The notes beneath the pieces are model-generated. The model saw nothing but the letters and a program-made list of their open reading frames with translations. It made no database searches and was not told where the DNA came from. From a virus (taxonomy: Duplodnaviria; Caudoviricetes), in IMG/VR virus record IMGVR_UViG_3300033153_009271, positions 1-52,549 of that record: a DNA stretch of 52,549 nt; one strand, written 5' to 3'. The first letter of the stretch is position 1. Each line of letters opens with the position of its first letter. The position numbers and the translations under genes were made by a program. Shown here one piece after another: positions 9,971-34,704 of this stretch.

Positions 9971-10453
9971 ATGACTAAGAACACCCTCTACCCCCTCAAG
10001 CCAAACTACACAGGCAAGAAGTCAAGCTGGAGCGGCTTTCCCTGGCATCAAGAACCCATTGCGTATGTGGAGGATATTCCCTATAGGGCAGAGGAGATAG
10101 TGCGGGAGAAGCCTGAGTCTGAACTTCCCGTAAGAGCCGAGCATTTCGTGGTAATCCCCGATGAACTTGTACCAAAATATTTGAAGAAGGCGGAGGAGGT
10201 AGAAAAGAGGGCATGGAAGGCACGGGAGAAGGCACGGGAGAAGACACGGAAGGCACGGGAGATATGGGAGAAGGCGCGGGAGAAGGCGCGGGAGGAATGG
10301 GAGAAGACACGGAAGGCACAGAAGGAGGCGCGGGAGGAATGGGAGAAGGTGAGAAAGAAAGCCTCCCGCAACCCCCGTATCATCAAATACCTCAAAGAAC
10401 ACACCCCCTACCAGTGGGACGGTAAAACTCTTATTTTCCCCCCAAGCCCGTGA
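9971..10453 (+). CDS. Hypothetical protein with AREK/WEK coiled-coil repeats
   Basis: 160-aa ORF with a C-rich leader and an internal repeat tract. Confidence 0.75.
   Translation: MTKNTLYPLKPNYTGKKSSWSGFPWHQEPIAYVEDIPYRAEEIVREKPESELPVRAEHFVVIPDELVPKYLKKAEEVEKRAWKAREKAREKTRKAREIWEKAREKAREEWEKTRKAQKEAREEWEKVRKKASRNPRIIKYLKEHTPYQWDGKTLIFPPSP
10215..10350 (+). repeat. Imperfect coding tandem repeat (GAAGGCACGGGA-like units)
   Basis: Repeated gaaggcacggga/gaaggcgcggga/gaagacacgg units. Confidence 0.85.
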
Positions 10454-10878
10454 TTAAAGACTCTATAGAAAAAACCTACTGGGAGCGTGTTGGCAAACTG
10501 CAACTAGACCTTGTTATGCAATACTATTGCAGGAAGCGTCTATGGTGGCAGTTTTGGAAGCCCAAATATTCCCCTCTTTCCCCTCCTACACCATCGGCAG
10601 AAGAGATAGAAAAATTCTGTGCTGTTAAAGGATGTAGGAAGCCATCAATCGTAAAAGGAATGTGCTGTATGCACTACACAAGATTAAGAAGAGGTGGGAG
10701 TGTTGGAGAGCCACAAGAGAGGGTGCATCACAATAAAAGAGCATTCCCAAAGTGCGAACATTTACCCAAAGCCTACAATAGCAAATGTTGTCTTCGATGC
10801 TATAACAAACATGCAAAACGAGCGGAAAGGAAACGCAAAATAACTGTTCTACATCATACTCACCACACAGATGTCTGA
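10450..10878 (+). CDS. Protein with CxxxxC..CxxHY zinc-binding module (homing-endonuclease-associated; no nuclease motif seen)
   Basis: CAVKGCRKPSIVKGMCCMHYTRLRRGG resembles the N-termini of ORFs 22361 and 34704. Confidence 0.6.
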   Translation: MIKDSIEKTYWERVGKLQLDLVMQYYCRKRLWWQFWKPKYSPLSPPTPSAEEIEKFCAVKGCRKPSIVKGMCCMHYTRLRRGGSVGEPQERVHHNKRAFPKCEHLPKAYNSKCCLRCYNKHAKRAERKRKITVLHHTHHTDV

Positions 10879-21075: not shown

Positions 21076-21351
21076 ATGAGGTTCCCAACTGATGTCATTT
21101 GGACCGCTTTAGCCGCTGCTGGTGGAATTGCGAAGCAATTGCATATCTATGTGCGGACTGGAGAATTCAGCTGGCCTCTTTTGATTGCCAGGGCAGTCAG
21201 CTCAGGGTTCTCAGGATACATGGTGGCTTCTGCTATGAGCATCGTGCGGCCTGAATATGCAATGGTTGCGGCTGGTGTTGGCGGGTATATAGGAGCGGAG
21301 GCTATGGATTTTCTCTACTCAGGTGTCAAAGCCTACTTCTCCAGGAATTAA
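21076..21351 (+). CDS. Holin-like membrane protein (LydA-like)
   Basis: Three hydrophobic segments; AAAGGIAK..SGFSG..AGVGGYIG; extended -10 TGATACAAT 8 nt upstream. Confidence 0.7.
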   Translation: MRFPTDVIWTALAAAGGIAKQLHIYVRTGEFSWPLLIARAVSSGFSGYMVASAMSIVRPEYAMVAAGVGGYIGAEAMDFLYSGVKAYFSRN

Positions 21352-21425
21352 AGTCCTTATCCTCGTACACCTAGTGTTAATAGGGATATTGTGTGTTACA
21401 CTCGTAATCAGCCTACCATGAACTT

Positions 21426-23798
21426 ATGTCAATTCAACACGTCGCTAAGAACCTTAATGCACAGACTGCGGAGCATAAAATCCTTGAAATTGAAGAAGAA
21501 CTTACCCGCATCAAGCTTGGAAGGCTTAAACTTCGGTACTTTATCGAGTACTGTTTCTCTCAATATCAGCACGCAAAGCATCACTCTATCCTCTGTGAGC
21601 ATCTTGAAGGACTCGAAAGGTATGTAGCGAGTGATGGGAAGGAGGGTATCGGTAGACTTATTGTCACGTTGCCGCCCCGGCACGGGAAGAGTTTGCACGT
21701 GTCTTGGTTCTTTCCAGCTTGGTTTTTAGGGCGTAATCCAGATAAACGTGTTATGATCTGTAGCCATGGAGCAGAACTTGCCGAAGGTTTTTCTGGGAAA
21801 GTGCGTAGTCTCGTTGAGACCACCGAATATCAAAAGCTCTTCGGTAAGATGGCGACGAAGAATAACATCCCGCACCCCATCACCCTCGATCCTGACACAC
21901 GCAGCAAACAAGCATGGGATATCGCTGGAAGATATGGAGGAGTGTTTGCTGCTGGAGTTGGAGGCCCTATTACAGGACGCGGTGCAGACATCCTTATCAT
22001 TGACGACCCGATCAAGAACAGAGAGGAGGCAGATTCTGAGACTGTTAGATCAAATATTAAGGATTGGTTTACGTCAACAGCATTCACAAGACTCCAACCG
22101 GGAGCAGCAGTAATTATTATGATGTGTATGACGGGGGATACGCCTGTTTTGATGTGGGACGGAACAGAGAAGCCATTGAAGAATATCAAGGTTGGGGACT
22201 ATGTTGCGACTCACGACAACGGGCGCATCACAACAGCTCGGATTATGAATTGGAAGAATCAAGGTCTTGATTTATGCTATGAAATCAAGATGAGTTCTGG
22301 TATAACTGTTAAAGCAAACAAGAGACATCCGTTTCTCGTTCGGCGTAACGGTAAACAAGAATGGGTACGACTAAAGAATCTCAAGATAGGCGACAACATC
22401 CTGCGGGCTATTGGGGCAAGTGGAAAGGTAAATTATGCTCAGCAGAAGGCTGTGATAAGCCAGCAAAATGTAAGGGATACTGCGATTCACACTATAACAA
22501 GCAGCGGTGGAAAGATGGTGTTCGTCCACCTTCGAACAATCCCCGTTCGAATCGCGAGGCACGTTTGCGATACCGTTATGGTATTGGCGTCGACGAGTAC
22601 GAAGCAATGGTCGAGGTTCAGGGGGGGCGTTGCGCAATTTGCAACAAGCTTCCCGATACCCAGGCCAAAGTGTACAGGAATCGACGACTCTTTGTTGACC
22701 ACTGTCATAACACAAAACAGGTTAGAGGGTTGCTCTGCAACAATTGCAACCTCGTCATTGGATATGGTAAAACAGAAGCTAATCTGCTTGCAGCCGCTCG
22801 ATACTTACGAGATCGTTCCTGATACTATTGCATCAATAAAACCTGTTGGTAGAGAGGATGTATTTGATATTCAGGTAGATAGAACAGAAAACTTTATTGC
22901 TAACGGATTGATTAGCCACAATACTCGATGGCACGAAGATGATCTCATTGGATGGCTTCTTTCTGAGAAAAATGAGAACAATACGTGGAAGTTGTTAAAT
23001 TTCCCCGCAATTGCTGAGGATAATGATGCCTTTAGGGCGCCTGGGGAGGCTTTGTGGCCTGAGTGGTTTTCACTTGAATATCTGGAACAGAACTACAAGA
23101 CGCTTCTCCCGCCGCGGGACTGGAATGCGATGTACCAACAACGTCCTACCAGTGATGAAGGAGAAGTGTTTATTAGAGATTGGTTCGTGTACGGCAACCT
23201 TCCTGAAAAGGATGAAATCAGCTACGCCCTGCAGGTCTGGGATTGTGCTCTTACAGAGAAGGATGAGGGAGATTATAGTGCTGGAGTAACTATGTTCGTT
23301 ACGAAGAGCGGAGTGTTTGTAGCAGATGTAGTCCGTGGACACTGGAACTTCCCAACTTTGAAACAGAAAATGTTCGAACAATATGAATATTGGTCAAGAC
23401 ATCACCGTGTCTCCAGAGTGTGTATTGAGAATAGGGTAGCAGGACAGTCTATGATCCAATCATTGAAGAAAGAGTCAAGTCTTCCTATTATCCCAATGGA
23501 ACCTGAATCTCGGCTGGGAAGATCCAAACGTCTACGAGCTGAAGCGGTAGCAGGTTATGTACAGTCTGGACGTGTGATCTTTCGAAAGAACGCTCCGTTC
23601 CTGCATGACTTCGAACATGAACTTCTGAGCTTTCCCCATGGAAAACACGACGATATGGTGGATGCATTTGTTTATGGTTTAATACAAGTTCAGGGTGGCG
23701 GAAGAGCGACACGTAGTGTTGTTCAAAAACACAAGAACCGTATGATGAATATGGGTGGTAGAAGGGATCGACTCTCGTTGTTAGTTGGAGGACTTTGA
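21426..23798 (+). CDS. terL: Terminase large subunit containing an intein
   Basis: LPPRHGKS Walker A, ITGRGADILIIDDP Walker B, TRWHEDD, C-terminal nuclease with HDDMVDA. Confidence 0.95.
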   Translation: MSIQHVAKNLNAQTAEHKILEIEEELTRIKLGRLKLRYFIEYCFSQYQHAKHHSILCEHLEGLERYVASDGKEGIGRLIVTLPPRHGKSLHVSWFFPAWFLGRNPDKRVMICSHGAELAEGFSGKVRSLVETTEYQKLFGKMATKNNIPHPITLDPDTRSKQAWDIAGRYGGVFAAGVGGPITGRGADILIIDDPIKNREEADSETVRSNIKDWFTSTAFTRLQPGAAVIIMMCMTGDTPVLMWDGTEKPLKNIKVGDYVATHDNGRITTARIMNWKNQGLDLCYEIKMSSGITVKANKRHPFLVRRNGKQEWVRLKNLKIGDNILRAIGASGKVNYAQQKAVISQQNVRDTAIHTITSSGGKMVFVHLRTIPVRIARHVCDTVMVLASTSTKQWSRFRGGVAQFATSFPIPRPKCTGIDDSLLTTVITQNRLEGCSATIATSSLDMVKQKLICLQPLDTYEIVPDTIASIKPVGREDVFDIQVDRTENFIANGLISHNTRWHEDDLIGWLLSEKNENNTWKLLNFPAIAEDNDAFRAPGEALWPEWFSLEYLEQNYKTLLPPRDWNAMYQQRPTSDEGEVFIRDWFVYGNLPEKDEISYALQVWDCALTEKDEGDYSAGVTMFVTKSGVFVADVVRGHWNFPTLKQKMFEQYEYWSRHHRVSRVCIENRVAGQSMIQSLKKESSLPIIPMEPESRLGRSKRLRAEAVAGYVQSGRVIFRKNAPFLHDFEHELLSFPHGKHDDMVDAFVYGLIQVQGGGRATRSVVQKHKNRMMNMGGRRDRLSLLVGGL
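22125..22922 (+). mobile_element. Intein (266 aa) in TerL
   Basis: CMTGDTPV block A, ANKRHPF block B, VFDIQV..ENFIANGLISHN/T blocks F-G; splits the M-TRW motif. Confidence 0.93.
22361..22822 (+). CDS. Endonuclease VII-type homing endonuclease overprinted inside the intein in another frame
   Basis: YGI..EYEAM...QGGRCAIC..LFVDHCH...VRGLLCNNCN..IG..AARYL; N-terminal CSAEGC..GYCDSHY. Confidence 0.88.
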   Translation: MGTTKESQDRRQHPAGYWGKWKGKLCSAEGCDKPAKCKGYCDSHYNKQRWKDGVRPPSNNPRSNREARLRYRYGIGVDEYEAMVEVQGGRCAICNKLPDTQAKVYRNRRLFVDHCHNTKQVRGLLCNNCNLVIGYGKTEANLLAAARYLRDRS

Positions 23799-23835
23799 TT
23801 GTAAGATTGGACAGGATATGCTATAGAGTAAAGTA

Positions 23836-25932
23836 ATGGCTGAACAAGATATCACATTCAAGGCTGGTTCCCCACTTCCTGATGCAGAAGATCAGCTTAA
23901 TAAGAATGTGGGAGTATGGCCAGCCACCGAAGAAGAGAAAAAAAAGGTTATCCGAATAGTCAACAGAATCGAACAGGAAATGATACCAGCCCGCTCTGAC
24001 TTTGAGGATGAATGGGATGATGCCAGACAGACGTATGAGGCATACATCGCCCCGGTACAAAACCGACCGAACCTACGATTCCCACTGTCATATATGGTGA
24101 TTGATGCAGCGATGGCCGAGGAGGTCGATGCCTTCCCGGACATTGAGTTCGAGCCCGTTGAGGAGGATGACAAAGCGAAAATGCCTATTATAAATGCACT
24201 TAAGAAGCATATGCTCGACAGAACAAATTGGGAAAAAATCAAGATGAAAGCTCGAAGGTTGTGTCGGATCTATGGATGGTGTGTCATCAGGATTCATTAC
24301 TCAAAGGAAACACGGTGGATTAGTGAGCGTGTTCCGATGAAAGGAGATGAAGGAATCCAGATTGGTCTTAAAAAGAAGCTGGATCACCCAAAGGATGATG
24401 TGATGATAGAAGTTATTGATGATCCGCACCGATTTATGATCGATGATACGGCAACCGAACTGGATGAGGATACTGAGGATTGTGCTCTTATCACGAAGAT
24501 CAGGTGGAATAAGTTCAAGCAGAAGGTGCAGAACGATAAGCGATACAAGAATCTGAAGTATGTGAAGCCCGGTGTAACCTATAGTGTGGATTATACAAAG
24601 GGCGAGGTTGTTCCTCCTTCACAGGACATTGAAGCAGATGAGACTCAGAAGGTAGAGATGGTCGAGTACTGGAATAAGTTCACAGATGAGTACGTGATGA
24701 TTGTTAATGGTGTCATCATTAGAGATGTTCCTCTGGTAGATGACCACAAGGAGCTGCCATTTGCAGCCTTGCACATGTACCGCAGGCCACACTCCTTCTA
24801 TTCGAAGGGTGTACCGAAGCTGATTGAGTCTGTTGAGGCGGCGTATGACAAACTGCTTAACTCAGCTGTGCAAGCAACTGGTCTGGCATTCCCGATGCTC
24901 TTTACCGCAGAGGATTCCGGTATTGACCCGTATGCTCTGGCCCCATATCCCGGTGTTGTTCTTGAGAATGCGATGGGGAAGGCGGAACTGGGGCAGCTTA
25001 CTCAGGTACCACAGGAGGTATGGCAGCTCAAGCAGGAGCTTGAGACTATGCTCATCTGGCTAACCGGAGTGAACTACCAGCAAATATTCTCTCCAGAAGG
25101 AGAATCTGATCGTGTGGGTATTGAGGCACTTAAGAAGGAATCTATGCTGGGCAGGGTGAACTTTAACCTGCGGGAGAATGAATCTGATTTCATCGTGCGC
25201 ACCGGGCAATTGCTTATTCAGGATGGCCAACAGTATTATTCCACACCGTTTGTTCGTGCGATCACTGACGATCTTGATATTAAGAGCATCTCTAAGAATG
25301 ACCTGATTATTAATGATGATGGAGAGCCTGTAGGATTCTTCGAATATAGGAAGATCCCCGTTGATGCCGGTATGAAATTTGAAGAACAATTCAATAATGA
25401 CACTGGCATCTTCACTCTTGAACCGAAGATATCTGATGAGAAGAGCTACCTCCTTGCGCGTCCTGAATACATTCGTACCCATGGACGATTGAATGCCCGT
25501 CCTGTCAGACCATCTGCAATGGGAGCAAGCAAGGAGGCGAAGAAATTGTTGTTTGCTGAGGTACTGAATGTAGCACTTGATGTGAATGGAGCGGCGCGAG
25601 AAATGAATGCACAGACCGATCCAAATACAGGAGTCGTAACTCCGGGAGGGGCCATCTGGGATATACAACAACTTTCTAAGATGTACGCTGAAATCAATGA
25701 GCTTTCTGTCAAGAAAGTTATTGTCGCTGAGCAGGATGATAAACGTACAGCCGCGCAGGACGCTGCTCGCAGGATCTCGCAGTCTGTGATCCAGCCATTC
25801 AGGGATCAAAGTGCAAAACAAATGGAAATCATGAATTTTGCAAGTCAACAGAATCCATTTGCAGCAGAGCTGGGGGCGGGTACTATATCTCCTGATCAAG
25901 CTCAAGATCTTACTGCCCAATCTACCGGATGA
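23836..25932 (+). CDS. Portal protein (P22-like)
   Basis: 698 aa immediately after TerL; ELPF..SFYSKG pattern. Confidence 0.82.
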   Translation: MAEQDITFKAGSPLPDAEDQLNKNVGVWPATEEEKKKVIRIVNRIEQEMIPARSDFEDEWDDARQTYEAYIAPVQNRPNLRFPLSYMVIDAAMAEEVDAFPDIEFEPVEEDDKAKMPIINALKKHMLDRTNWEKIKMKARRLCRIYGWCVIRIHYSKETRWISERVPMKGDEGIQIGLKKKLDHPKDDVMIEVIDDPHRFMIDDTATELDEDTEDCALITKIRWNKFKQKVQNDKRYKNLKYVKPGVTYSVDYTKGEVVPPSQDIEADETQKVEMVEYWNKFTDEYVMIVNGVIIRDVPLVDDHKELPFAALHMYRRPHSFYSKGVPKLIESVEAAYDKLLNSAVQATGLAFPMLFTAEDSGIDPYALAPYPGVVLENAMGKAELGQLTQVPQEVWQLKQELETMLIWLTGVNYQQIFSPEGESDRVGIEALKKESMLGRVNFNLRENESDFIVRTGQLLIQDGQQYYSTPFVRAITDDLDIKSISKNDLIINDDGEPVGFFEYRKIPVDAGMKFEEQFNNDTGIFTLEPKISDEKSYLLARPEYIRTHGRLNARPVRPSAMGASKEAKKLLFAEVLNVALDVNGAAREMNAQTDPNTGVVTPGGAIWDIQQLSKMYAEINELSVKKVIVAEQDDKRTAAQDAARRISQSVIQPFRDQSAKQMEIMNFASQQNPFAAELGAGTISPDQAQDLTAQSTG

Positions 25933-32477: not shown

Positions 32478-34216
32478 TGCCTAGAGAGAAGTTACTCGTC
32501 GGCGAACATATGGCGGGTGGTCTGAACCTAGCCGCGGGAGAGAAGAATGTGGGAGAAGAACAGAATATTGAGTCTCGTCATATGTCGTATTCTCCTGATG
32601 GAGCTGTAGTTGCGAGTCTTGGGTATTCAATGCCGTCTGCTTGGACAGTAGCGGAGACTGGGGAGGGGATTGATGGTCTCTATGAGATGGGAGAATACCC
32701 GCTTGTGTTCAAAGCTGTAAACGGCAAGATTCTCTATACGAATGCGACGACAGTGGATTGGATGGAGGCGGATACAGGAATATCCTTGACGAAGGATAAC
32801 CCTGTGTTCTTCACCGAGTTCCGTGGGAATATCTACTACTGCAATGGTGTGGAAGATGCAGGTGTGATTGCTGTAGGAAGACTGGACACTGCTATAACAG
32901 TTGCTTCTACTACGATTGAACTTGCAGATGATAATGGATTCAGATTTAACAATGGTGTAGATAAGGTTTATATTGAAGGAGACGAGATTGATTATACTGC
33001 TGTATCGACTGATGATCTTACGACTGTAACGAATATCACTGCCTCTCACGATGCGGATACATATGTCACACAGGCGCGGACTATCACTGCTCCAGCGAGT
33101 ACCTCATTAAAATGCAAGACTATGGCGATGTGGCAGAGCACTCTTTGGCTTGGTGGCCTTTCTGATTTTCCGGGTGCTATTCCATATAGTAAAAGCACTA
33201 CAAATATTGGGAATGTAGACAATGTGAAGGATTTTACGGATGACAATAACTATCTGCTACGCAAGGGTGCGGTAACAGCATTGCTTCCTACGCGTGATCG
33301 TCTCTACGTCTTCTCTGAAAAGGAGGTGTATTATATTACGATTGAGATTACCTCCAATGGTTTGCGTGTTTTCTCTGAGATTCGTCTCTTCACACCGAAT
33401 TATGGAACCCCTAATGCATTTACAGTGGAGGAGATGGAGGATGTCGTGACGTTTTATACTGGAGATCGCTTCATTCGTATTGGATATGATCCAGATATTG
33501 ATCAACTCCTTCCTGATGAAAAATTTGATGAAGAGGTTTATCCTATCCTTGATATATCACGTCGATACCCGCAAACTGCAGCACGTCTTAAATATATTCC
33601 TCACGAAAAGAAAAATAGGCTTACTCTGAATATTGATGGCAAACTAAAAACTATCACCTATGATAATAGGCTTGATGAGTATAGCTATCCAGATGAACAA
33701 GATGTGGCATTTTATGTCGCGTTCGATGGTTTCACGTACTTTGGAAATCCAGATGATGACAAGGTATATAGGGTTGGAGGTGACTATGAAGCGGACGGTC
33801 TTGCAGTTCCTCATTCTTATACTACAGGCCGATATGATCTTGGAGATCGTAATTCGAAGTTTTTTAGAGATGGAGTGATTGAGGGATTTATTGGCGCGAA
33901 CACTACAATCAATTTTGAAGTGCTTATAAATGATGTGGTAGTCGGTGGGATACGAACGATTACCGGTCAGACTCATGGAGACTTAGCTTCTAATGCTAAA
34001 GCGATAGGAGATCTTCTTGTTGGATCTGGTACGGAGGTTGGTGGTGGTGGTGATACAACAGCTTTGTATCCTTTCAGATATCCGTTCGTTATTGCCGGAC
34101 GAGGCGAAGATATCAAGTTACGTTTCTCTTCTTTTACAGAAGGTTCAACATGGGCCATCGATAAGTGGCAAGTCAGTGTTGTTCTCTTCGATGATGTACC
34201 AGACACCGCATATTAA
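32477..34216 (+). CDS. Tail nozzle (tubular B / P22 gp10-like), probable
   Basis: GGLN start motif, beta-propeller-like composition, follows the adaptor. Confidence 0.7.
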   Translation: MPREKLLVGEHMAGGLNLAAGEKNVGEEQNIESRHMSYSPDGAVVASLGYSMPSAWTVAETGEGIDGLYEMGEYPLVFKAVNGKILYTNATTVDWMEADTGISLTKDNPVFFTEFRGNIYYCNGVEDAGVIAVGRLDTAITVASTTIELADDNGFRFNNGVDKVYIEGDEIDYTAVSTDDLTTVTNITASHDADTYVTQARTITAPASTSLKCKTMAMWQSTLWLGGLSDFPGAIPYSKSTTNIGNVDNVKDFTDDNNYLLRKGAVTALLPTRDRLYVFSEKEVYYITIEITSNGLRVFSEIRLFTPNYGTPNAFTVEEMEDVVTFYTGDRFIRIGYDPDIDQLLPDEKFDEEVYPILDISRRYPQTAARLKYIPHEKKNRLTLNIDGKLKTITYDNRLDEYSYPDEQDVAFYVAFDGFTYFGNPDDDKVYRVGGDYEADGLAVPHSYTTGRYDLGDRNSKFFRDGVIEGFIGANTTINFEVLINDVVVGGIRTITGQTHGDLASNAKAIGDLLVGSGTEVGGGGDTTALYPFRYPFVIAGRGEDIKLRFSSFTEGSTWAIDKWQVSVVLFDDVPDTAY

Positions 34217-34704
34217 TGCTTAATCTTATCTCTATATATCTGGCAACAATCATGACACCAATCTTGGTGGGTATCTCCTCTATATACGGAATGATCACGT
34301 TTCCTCCAATAAAAATTGCTTCTTGGGAGGGTATTTTTACAATGATGGCATTGTTTGTCAGTGCTTCCATAGTAGTATCTCGCGTGCGCACGTTGATGTT
34401 TGGTATGATTAGTTACCTCAAGGTTCTCAATATTGTTATTAAGAATATTGCCATCAATATGATGAACGTATTCCTTCCGCGTCAACTTTCTCCCAAGGTG
34501 ATCTTCCATGATCTTCCTGTGAAGAAGTTTTCTCTTCTTGCCTACTTTAATACAAAGATATCCTTGCTCATTAGGCCATCCTTCGCCTGGCATACGATTT
34601 ATTCTGTCCAATCTGCCGTAGAGACGTTTTCTGTCATAATGAATGCTGCAATATCCTTTTGCCAAGACCTCTTTGGGGCAGTTATCAACAGAACACGTAT
34701 TCAT
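34213..34704 (-). CDS. HNH homing endonuclease, antisense within the late operon
   Basis: LHRKIMEDHLGRKL...EYVHHIDGNILNNNIENLEV..H...H; N-terminal CSVDNC..GYCSIHY. Confidence 0.9.
   Translation of the reverse strand: MNTCSVDNCPKEVLAKGYCSIHYDRKRLYGRLDRINRMPGEGWPNEQGYLCIKVGKKRKLLHRKIMEDHLGRKLTRKEYVHHIDGNILNNNIENLEVTNHTKHQRAHARYYYGSTDKQCHHCKNTLPRSNFYWRKRDHSVYRGDTHQDWCHDCCQIYRDKIKH

Follow-up and report, generated by a model that had tools for sequence, protein, structure and literature searches.

An endonuclease VII-like gene nested out of frame in a terL mini-intein of an uncultured, low-GC phage

Inteins that carry a nuclease gene out of frame have already been described. In homologous TerL inteins of actinobacteriophages, Gosselin et al. 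(bioRxiv 10.1101/2025.01.02.630785) report the same architecture that we describe here for the window, which is the whole 52,549-nucleotide stretch of viral DNA analysed (IMG/VR record IMGVR_UViG_3300033153_009271). As set out there, their members share with the window the host gene, the insertion site (between a hydrophobic strand and TRWHxxD), the intein family, the position of the nuclease in frame 3 and an unstructured in-frame loop; in both cases the proposed origin is the invasion of an intein by a free-standing nuclease. For the nuclease of the window, identity to its counterpart in Gordonia phage Angelicage, which the preprint names, was 55%, within a range of 47-55% over the Gordonia and Mycobacterium phages. 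Together with the insertion site and the splicing blocks, these identities make the window homologous to the published members. An earlier note on this DNA had made novelty subject to a literature check; the hope of it was not borne out, because the architecture is in that preprint. The window adds one member to this known kind, from an uncultured phage of low GC content that is largely without Shine-Dalgarno motifs, and since the kind has been reported it opens no new question. The survey of Gosselin et al. covers PhagesDB actinophages only, whereas the window has a GC content of 0.45, comes from an uncultured phage and is mostly devoid of Shine-Dalgarno sequences. In contrast to the inteins as they describe them, the nuclease ORF of the window begins inside the structured N-terminal splicing region. 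The main text of the preprint mentions neither the start codon nor metagenomic sequences, and what the present analysis adds to that main text is a wider spread, an invariant frame relation with a start on a Trp codon, purifying selection, and use of the frame with the fewest stops.

Three other systems come close. In a cyanobacterial dnaX intein, a LAGLIDADG homing endonuclease lies out of frame (Phillips, DeSimone & Gogarten, bioRxiv 10.64898/2026.09.14.751524). According to that preprint the intein resembles the window in being contiguous, with the nuclease in an overlapping frame, and in having intein-free alleles alongside intein-containing ones, and it resembles the terL relatives in its dN/dS, low for the nuclease frame and inflated for that of the host gene. 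It differs in its LAGLIDADG nuclease, dnaX host gene, cellular setting and non-homologous intein. An insertion with a ShiLan domain in phage DNA methylase genes conceals an HNH endonuclease that is out of frame (Arsenault et al., Genes 2025, PMC11855218); as in the window, the nuclease ORF is nested out of frame while the frame of the host gene stays open throughout, and the authors propose that the nuclease is translated without a recognisable ribosome-binding site. By their account the splicing domain is absent and the host protein keeps the additional peptide, whereas in the window a Hint domain would remove it. In fractured genes, split inteins have a free-standing VSR-like endonuclease gene between their halves (Dassa et al. 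2009, as cited by Gosselin et al.), so that, as in the window, a free-standing nuclease gene replaces the endonuclease domain of the intein. Such host genes are described as lying in two ORFs joined by trans-splicing, whereas the terL frame of the window is continuous. For the nested protein itself the best structural match was T4 endonuclease VII (gp49; PDB 1e7d, 1en7, 2qnc), with which it shares the Pfam family, the zinc cysteines and the residues D40/H41/H43/N62 of the T4 enzyme.

The layout of the locus is given in Table 1. Pfam searches with the terL precursor found Terminase_6N (E 2.7e-10), Terminase_6C (E 5.2e-13) and Intein_splicing (E 4.6e-18). The earlier note had placed a TerL intein at 22125-22922 and a complete endonuclease VII of 153 aa in a shifted frame at 22361-22822. 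Both placements were exact: the intein runs from Cys1 to SHN and is followed by Thr+1, and the shifted frame matched Pfam Endonuclease_7 (E 4.5e-20) with its zinc cysteines and catalytic residues kept. The HMM check of both frames that it had suggested returned Intein_splicing in the terL frame and Endonuclease_7 in the shifted frame. The overlap is indeed stop-free in both of these frames, and the remaining frame has 12 stops. The nuclease ORF has an offset of 2 from terL and lies in the -1 frame of terL. As had also been claimed, the in-frame reading of the intein contained no nuclease family (Pfam, E up to 0.1), and its centre was predicted to be disordered. A split intein or fractured gene was ruled out, since a single terL ORF of 790 aa spans the intein.

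Table 1. Features of the terL locus and of the nested ORF (positions in the window)
Feature	Position	Strand	Description
terL precursor ORF	21426..23798	+	790 aa, intein included; single ORF through the intein (ORF list)
N-extein	21426..22124	+	233 aa, ends ...AAVIIMM
Intein	22125..22922	+	266 aa, Cys1 (CMTGDTPVL...) to His-Asn (...NGLISHN), then Thr+1
Intein N-terminal splicing region, residues 1-98	22125..22418	+	AlphaFold2, all beta strands
In-frame 'filler' loop, intein residues 99-221	22419..22787	+	overprinted by the nuclease gene; AlphaFold2 pLDDT <50
Intein C-terminal splicing region, residues 222-266, ...VFDIQVDRTENFIANGLISHN	22788..22922	+	AlphaFold2, invariant residues, Foldseek
Nested endonuclease VII-like ORF	22361..22822	+	153 aa plus stop; frame 3 relative to terL
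Nuclease ATG (22361-22363) overlapping the intein Trp80 codon TGG (22362-22364)	22361..22364	+	
Nuclease N-terminal Cys/His motif, residues 26-45, C..GC...C..HY	22436..22495	+	invariant residues, PHROG
Endonuclease VII catalytic domain, nuclease residues 67-150	22559..22810	+	Pfam match range
C-extein	22923..23798	+	291 aa plus stop, starts TRWHEDDL

The intein alone matched Intein_splicing with an E value of 2.4e-19 and 70.1 bits (cut-off 35.8). AlphaFold2 modelled both splicing regions with confidence: as means over blocks of 10 residues, pLDDT was 89-96 for residues 1-90 and 76 for residues 91-100, and at the other end 70 for residues 221-230 and 87-96 for residues 231-266. Residues 99-221 fell below 50 and had no secondary structure. 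The best Foldseek matches of the model were mini-inteins (Ssp DnaB, E 2.1e-9; TM to target 0.77-0.88), indicating a Hint fold. Among 20 aligned inteins, the Cys1 nucleophile and H68 of the RHPF block (...ANKRHPF) were invariant, as was TENFIAN..SHN, including S264, H265 and N266; the intein ends in His-Asn and is followed by a Thr+1 nucleophile. In the block B motif a Thr usually stands three residues before the His; here H68 is the block B histidine and Asn65 occupies that position. By these motifs and its modelled fold, the product of the terL frame is a class-1 mini-intein with a loop of about 123 residues that is predicted to be disordered. It presumably splices out of the TerL precursor, because terL is essential and the source genome, a metagenome-assembled viral genome with terminal repeats, is complete.

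The nested ORF matched Pfam Endonuclease_7 (PF02945) over 81 of the 82 profile positions with 71.8 bits (cut-off 23.6), and its PHROG matches were endonuclease VII families (best E 4.1e-28). Its residues C91, C94, C126 and C129, invariant in 25 sequences, align with C23, C26, C58 and C61 of T4 endonuclease VII, which we take to be the zinc-binding cysteines of that enzyme. D113, H114, H116 and N130 align with D40, H41, H43 and N62, presumably the catalytic Asp-His-x-His and Asn; in the same 25 sequences D113, H114 and N130 were invariant and H116 nearly so. Glu65 of the T4 enzyme, perhaps a defining residue of the endonuclease VII family, has no equivalent, as Ile133 aligns there and the relatives carry V, I, L or A. 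The AlphaFold2 model of the nuclease had a mean pLDDT of 79.9, and its best Foldseek match, T4 endonuclease VII, was found with a probability of 1.00, a weak E value (5.9e-3) and a TM of about 0.3; Hpy99I was also among the best matches, at similarly weak E and a TM of about 0.3. Unlike T4 endonuclease VII, a junction resolvase that stands free, the nested protein lies within an intein, carries an additional N-terminal Cys/His module and aligns in sequence with the T4 enzyme over residues 78-140 only. C26, C31, C41, H44 and Y45 of this motif were invariant in the 25 sequences, and the motif matched the PHROG HNH-endonuclease families 1271 and 5351, suggesting that it is likely a zinc-binding module, which may bind DNA. 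The nested protein is presumably of the endonuclease VII type (His-Me finger) with an N-terminal zinc-finger-like module; that it is active, and on a specific target, we infer. A run of seven G (22620-22626) lies inside the nested ORF.

In L048, the closest relative, nothing interrupts terL: ...VIIMM and TRWHEDDL are contiguous, showing that the intein of the window is a precise insertion. The exteins of the window were 78% (N-extein) and 82% (C-extein) identical in amino acids to this intein-less protein, whose N-extein also has 233 aa. One precise site is therefore occupied in the window and empty in L048, the presence/absence polymorphism expected of homing. Compared with other loci, the splicing blocks were 45-72% identical and the exteins 28-47%; against cultured phages the C-extein reached at most 36.5%. 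T4 endonuclease VII and HNH proteins have been linked to packaging, and the nested protein might accordingly serve the phage as a packaging-linked branch resolvase or an HNH-type terminase helper co-expressed from the terL mRNA. Its membership of the endonuclease VII family and its location inside a packaging gene, by which it would be transcribed with terL, would fit. However, the whole insert, nuclease included, is absent from the site in L048, the nuclease always accompanies the intein at one insertion site, and conservation is higher in the intein than in the exteins; all three fit a selfish element, and we consider a service to the phage very unlikely. The GC content of the intein (0.454) is close to that of the genome (0.448), which gives no hint of a recent arrival. 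Recent transfer from a high-GC donor was rejected on the same values.

The nested layout recurs. In IMG/VR, all 31 full-length relatives have the nuclease nested in a long terL-frame ORF with an identical offset. Among 18 long matches in bacterial assemblies the same offset was found in 17, and 16 were intact and nested; the GenBank phages Angelicage, Phlyer and AlanGrant (cultured Gordonia and Mycobacterium phages) all have the same nesting and offset 2. The IMG/VR relatives came from an alignment-based scan (a scan with the single nuclease sequence gave only 3 distant loci), and the counts cover neither L042-L047 nor 22 of the 52 genome-contig loci, whose matches were weak or partial. Carriers of the element include uncultured phages as well as assemblies whose labels name at least eight bacterial phyla. 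The earlier note had named a sequencing indel as a finding that would overturn its reading, and an assembly or sequencing error that shifted an ordinary in-frame nuclease domain deserves mention, as the genome is assembled from a metagenome and contains the G run described above. Two compensating indels would be required, however, the nuclease frame possesses a start of its own, with a stop upstream, and 9 longer proteins that carry the domain included no in-frame version. The identical offset across IMG/VR, the assemblies and the three finished GenBank phages excludes such an error for practical purposes, and we give it next to no probability.

The same comparison bears on the origin of the element. 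None of the 12 relatives examined that share only the catalytic domain was nested, and no intein or terminase Pfam family was detected in the 9 longer proteins with an endonuclease VII domain, which is weak evidence. Together with the matches to PHROG endonuclease VII families, these results support the earlier proposal that a free-standing endonuclease invaded a mini-intein.

Frame-specific dN/dS across homologs, another check suggested beforehand, was run among related loci. The median NG86 dN/dS was 0.09 in the nuclease frame (23 pairs) and 1.6 in the terL frame (26 pairs), and the nuclease frame had the lower value in all 23 pairs computable both ways out of 27 examined; these pairs have taxa in common and lack independence, and overlapping genes bias NG86. 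Variation was concentrated at third positions of the nuclease codons (nucleotide entropy 0.82/0.75/1.44 for positions 1/2/3), and the mean pairwise amino acid identity over 300 pairs was 0.56 in the nuclease frame vs 0.32 in the terL frame. By these estimates strong purifying selection acts on the nuclease frame among the relatives. The nucleotide identity of the window to its relatives is 0.63 or less, too low for dN/dS, so that what has been shown is selection in the family, not in this copy. Individual copies can be dead: in L061 the nuclease frame contains a stop and the terL frame is still open, and L062 carries a frameshift as well as a stop. These decayed copies, the GC content of the intein, fully matched to that of the genome, and the lack of a computable selection estimate for the window alone would all suit a nested ORF that in this phage is an open but functionless relic, with the intein persisting only since terL needs splicing. 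Against this, the ORF is complete, with start, stop, the four zinc cysteines and D113/H114/H116/N130, and it retains its strong Pfam match at 44-60% amino acid identity to the relatives. Furthermore, an unselected frame at GC 0.45 would gain stops fast, as the third frame, with its 12, illustrates. We regard a relic as unlikely.

How the nuclease would be translated was judged from start codons, upstream stops and frameshift signals. In all 30 sequences with the region present, the nuclease start (28 ATG, 2 GTG) falls on a Trp codon, and the ATG/GTG-on-TGG overlap was also found in 16 of 17 nested loci of the bacterial assemblies and in the three GenBank phages. Because the nuclease is read in the -1 frame relative to terL, ribosomal frameshifting could in principle produce a fusion of the N-extein, a partial Hint domain and the nuclease, and 6 of 25 unique relatives (L013-L017, L019) have a canonical A_AAA_AAG heptamer in the terL frame just past the start. 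These six are, however, closely related (nucleotide identity 0.72-0.84), and 15 of the 25 unique sequences lack an X_XXY_YYZ heptamer in the permitted region, the window among them. In 17 of the 25 an in-frame stop, 0-5 codons ahead of the start, closes the nuclease frame (2 codons in the window). With the start codon conserved throughout, frameshifting appears highly improbable, and internal initiation is favoured. A Shine-Dalgarno core precedes only 1 of 35 long ORFs in the genome of the window, so its absence before the nested ATG is normal here. A scan for sigma-70-like promoters over 21300-23900 gave 3 sites vs 4.5 expected, none of them upstream of 22361, and the RNA fold of 22321-22400 was unremarkable (z = +1.06; 176 of 200 shuffles folded at least as well). 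Neither blastn of terL against cultured phages nor tblastn of the portal protein against phages gave a match, and no relative of the portal protein was found in bacterial genome contigs. The GC content of 0.45, the scarcity of Shine-Dalgarno cores and the missing nucleotide and portal matches to cultured phages argue against an actinophage, short of proof.

We consider it very probable that a two-gene mobile element occupies the essential terL gene, namely a mini-intein and an overprinted, internally initiated endonuclease VII that serves homing. The in silico support consists of both ORFs, both predicted folds, the conservation of layout and start, the purifying selection on the nuclease frame in relatives and the empty-site allele. 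The intein would excise itself together with the loop from the TerL precursor by protein splicing, and the loop, being removed, would be free to vary in sequence. From the same DNA, shifted one base earlier into frame 3, a separate 153-aa nuclease would be read; its translation most likely starts internally on the terL mRNA, at an ATG that overlaps the conserved Trp codon. The nuclease most likely acts as a homing endonuclease that cuts intein-less terL alleles during co-infection, and repair of the cut allele would copy in the intein plus the nuclease. A bolder reading, which we think quite unlikely, starts from T4 endonuclease VII being a branch resolvase linked to packaging: the nested endonuclease VII, tied to the terL mRNA and with its start held on the Trp codon of the intein, would have been co-opted, and terminase would be produced jointly with a nuclease for DNA clearing or end processing. 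If true, the intein would benefit the phage, and this could be the reason why it has spread to phages of many bacterial phyla. The milder and less bold form is that of one ancient composite element of single origin, with Shine-Dalgarno-independent internal initiation, found well beyond actinophages. Inteins with out-of-frame nucleases speak for an origin of inteins as splicing elements that acquired free-standing nucleases later, and they are also a reminder that gene callers miss real genes nested within essential genes. The spread, the invariant start, the selection and the frame statistics make internal initiation in terL directly testable in culturable members.

The frame statistics were obtained by holding the nuclease protein constant and redrawing its codons by the genome's own usage. 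With the protein fixed, 3.2 stops were expected in the terL frame, and the probability of finding none was 0.022 (20,000 draws), so that one open overlap is only mildly unlikely; the case for the nesting draws its weight from the recurrence of the same layout in every full-length relative examined. The frame relation in use is the one with the fewest possible stops, as the other frame would be expected to carry 19.5 in the window.

The window is a complete viral genome (52,549 bp, direct terminal repeats, GC about 0.45), in which the terminase large subunit gene, terL, had been claimed to hold an intein without an in-frame nuclease. Exactly the same intein stretch was recovered (Table), and its centre, read in the terL frame, matched no nuclease family in Pfam at E values up to 0.1. 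AlphaFold2 modelling from an alignment of 20 homologues predicted confident beta structure for residues 1-98 and 222-266, and disorder for residues 99-221 (pLDDT about 30, secondary structure absent), in keeping with the description of the centre as filler. The closest structures in Foldseek were mini-inteins, namely Ssp DnaB, Npu DnaB and the Mtu RecA splicing domain (E down to 2.1e-9, TM to target 0.77-0.88). In silico, the terL-frame product is thus a class-1 mini-intein whose loop, about 123 residues long, is disordered and disposable.

Table. Positions of terL, its intein, the nested nuclease gene and other nuclease-like genes in the window
Feature	Position	Strand	Length	Characteristics
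terL ORF	21426..23798		790 aa	Pfam Terminase_6N, Terminase_6C and intein splicing domain
Intein in terL	22125..22922		266 residues	First residue Cys, last His-Asn, then Thr
Nested ORF	22361..22822		153 aa	Offset 2 from terL (frame 3); Endonuclease_7
Free-standing HNH endonuclease gene	34213-34704	minus	163 aa	Pfam HNH_3, E 2.1e-9
ORF with Cys/His motif twice	10450-10878	plus	142 aa	

The complete endonuclease VII that the earlier note had placed in the shifted frame was found there. HMM searches of both frames matched the nested frame to Pfam Endonuclease_7 (E 4.5e-20, 71.8 bits against a cut-off of 23.6) and to PHROG endonuclease VII families (E 4.1e-28), and gave no nuclease match in the terL-frame intein centre. 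The model of the nested protein, built with 25 homologues, had a mean pLDDT of 79.9, and only residues 1-17 were poorly defined. Among known structures, T4 endonuclease VII ranked first (probability 1.00, E 5.9e-3); another leading match was Hpy99I, a beta-beta-alpha-Me enzyme. In a sequence alignment with T4 endonuclease VII, C91, C94, C126 and C129 fell on its zinc cysteines, and D113, H114, H116 and N130 on D40, H41, H43 and N62, whereas Glu65 is replaced by Ile133. In silico, the intein loop is overprinted by an entire endonuclease VII-type gene that has a start and a stop of its own.

Constraint is split unevenly between the two products. According to the models, the floppy nuclease N-terminus overprints about 19 codons of the structured intein and the last nuclease helix about 12 in the C-terminal splicing region, and the remainder lies over the disordered loop. 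In the relatives L003, L032, L035, L037, L038 and L039 the nuclease has a second Cys-rich repeat at its N-terminus and is longer by about 40-50 residues; their inteins are extended to match (about 300 aa).

We then considered whether the overlap could be due to chance or to an artefact. No stop interrupts either frame within the overlap, as claimed, and the third frame has 12. When the nuclease protein was held fixed and its codons were redrawn from genome usage (20,000 draws), 3.2 stops were expected in the terL frame, which was open in 2.2% of draws, so that one open overlap by itself is not very improbable. In the other frame 19.5 stops were expected, and therefore only the observed frame relation could realistically accommodate an insert of this kind. 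As judged from sequence comparison, the main weight against chance or artefact comes from the relatives. A sequencing indel behind the frame shift, named in the earlier note as the refuting case, is excluded because the same nested frame recurs in cultured phages, IMG/VR and bacterial contigs.

Among cultured phages, the best tblastn matches of the nested protein lay under terL of Gordonia and Mycobacterium phages (47-55% identity), and Angelicage, Phlyer and AlanGrant each have an intact ORF of 151-194 aa at the same offset 2 within an annotated intein. The window itself is unlikely to be an actinophage. An alignment-based IMG/VR scan returned 38 loci, of which L010-L041 were counted for nesting and L042-L047 left out: in 31/31 full-length loci (L010-L040) the nuclease ORF lay, with unchanged offset, inside a long ORF of the terL frame, and in the weaker match L041 it was not nested. 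A scan of bacterial genome contigs gave 52 loci, 30 of which were examined; 16 of the 18 long matches (L049-L066) were intact and nested, as were 0 of the 12 catalytic-domain-only matches. The frame was the same in all 47 further intact nested loci, and we regard the intein-nested endonuclease VII as confirmed to be real and conserved.

The assemblies with members are labelled Firmicutes, Alpha-, Beta- and Gammaproteobacteria, Actinobacteria, Chloroflexota, Verrucomicrobiota, Saccharimonadales, Geobacteraceae and Vulcanimicrobiota; many are MAGs, in which a phage contig may be mis-binned. Two long matches have decayed. In L061, which is nested, the terL frame is open and the nuclease frame is interrupted by a stop. 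In L062, carried by an alphaproteobacterial MAG contig of 911 kb, a stop interrupts the N-terminal splicing region and a frameshift disrupts the nuclease. L049 and L050 (GC 0.64) agree in match coordinates, open frames and splice-block motifs, that is, in every aspect examined, which looks odd; the two isolates belong to one project and carry the names Oribacterium sp. and Dysosmobacter sp. Residence in two hosts seems a less likely explanation than cross-contamination or a phage that the isolates share.

To assess selection, 25 unique sequences were aligned by codon. Positions 1, 2 and 3 of the nuclease codons had nucleotide entropies of 0.82, 0.75 and 1.44, indicating that variation falls on the wobble base of the nuclease, the second codon position in the terL frame. 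Over 300 pairs, amino-acid identity averaged 0.56 when read in the nuclease frame, against 0.32 in the terL frame. The frame-specific dN/dS comparison that had been proposed was made on 27 pairs of relatives with nucleotide identity of at least 0.72, the window being too diverged for this set. The median NG86 dN/dS, from pairs that share taxa and by a method biased for overlapping genes, was 0.09 for the nuclease reading (23 pairs) versus 1.6 for the terL reading (26 pairs), and in 23/23 pairs computable in both frames the nuclease value was the lower. Among the relatives, the nuclease gene is under purifying selection.

The first start of the nuclease frame overlaps the TGG of the intein's invariant Trp80 in all 30 sequences holding the region (ATG in 28, GTG in 2), which are the window and 29 IMG/VR loci, L020 and L023 being cut by contig ends. 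It also lies on the Trp codon in 16/17 nested genome-contig loci and 3/3 GenBank phages. Because a stop closes the nuclease frame 0-5 codons upstream of the start in 17 of the 25 unique sequences (2 codons in the window), the sequences favour independent initiation at this codon. Upstream of the nuclease start, a strict Shine-Dalgarno core is present in 13/25 sequences but absent from the window, which is not unusual for this genome, since only 1 of its 35 long ORFs has such a core. Pyrimidine-rich stretches, such as ccttccctcttacttctctc, instead precede many long ORFs (e.g. 13392, 15459, 28241, 29273 and 49746), and this hints at a host that initiates without dependence on Shine-Dalgarno pairing. 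In 15 of the unique sequences, the window among them, the permitted region contains no -1 slippery heptamer. A_AAA_AAG, slippery in the terL frame and encoding LKKG in the intein, lies about 21 nt downstream of the nuclease start in six closely related sequences of the 25 (L013-L017 and L019), and could yield a fusion product in this sub-clade.

The closest relative of the window terL, L048, is intein-less (N-extein 78%, C-extein 82% amino-acid identity) and reads uninterrupted through the insertion point (...VIIMM|TRWHEDDL). All nested loci with both junctions located share this site; compared with the window, they show 45-72% identity in the splicing blocks but only 28-47% in the exteins. 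Recent arrival from a high-GC donor is ruled out because the GC of the intein (0.454) equals that of the genome (0.448). The interpretation in the earlier note is supported. The intein would splice from the TerL precursor, since terL is essential; the nuclease is most likely translated from terL mRNA by internal initiation and most likely cuts terL alleles that lack the intein, which would then receive a copy of the composite element.

The architecture itself is not novel. A 2025 preprint (Gosselin et al., bioRxiv 10.1101/2025.01.02.630785) already describes it as a previously unreported type, gives TerL as one of four host proteins of such non-canonical inteins, names Angelicage, Affeca, Keitabear and Sedona, and proposes that a free-standing nuclease invaded an intein. 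Hidden out-of-frame nucleases are also described, by the same laboratory, as LAGLIDADG type in a cyanobacterial dnaX intein (bioRxiv 10.64898/2026.09.14.751524) and as HNH type in ShiLan (Genes 2025, PMC11855218). The window is a further member of this known kind, from an uncultured low-GC phage largely without Shine-Dalgarno motifs. The start on a Trp codon within the structured splicing region, the invariant frame across the 47 further loci, and members in assemblies of many bacterial labels appear to be additions to the preprint's main text.

The window has two other nuclease-like genes (Table). The minus-strand HNH gene sits among plus-strand structural genes, and its product, which shares the N-terminal C..C..KG.C..HY motif of the nested endonuclease VII, is probably a second homing-type nuclease of this genome. 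The 142-aa ORF, in which the same Cys/His motif occurs twice, had no Pfam match and only weak PHROG HNH-endonuclease matches across the motif region (E about 7e-5); it could encode a DNA-binding protein or be what is left of a nuclease.
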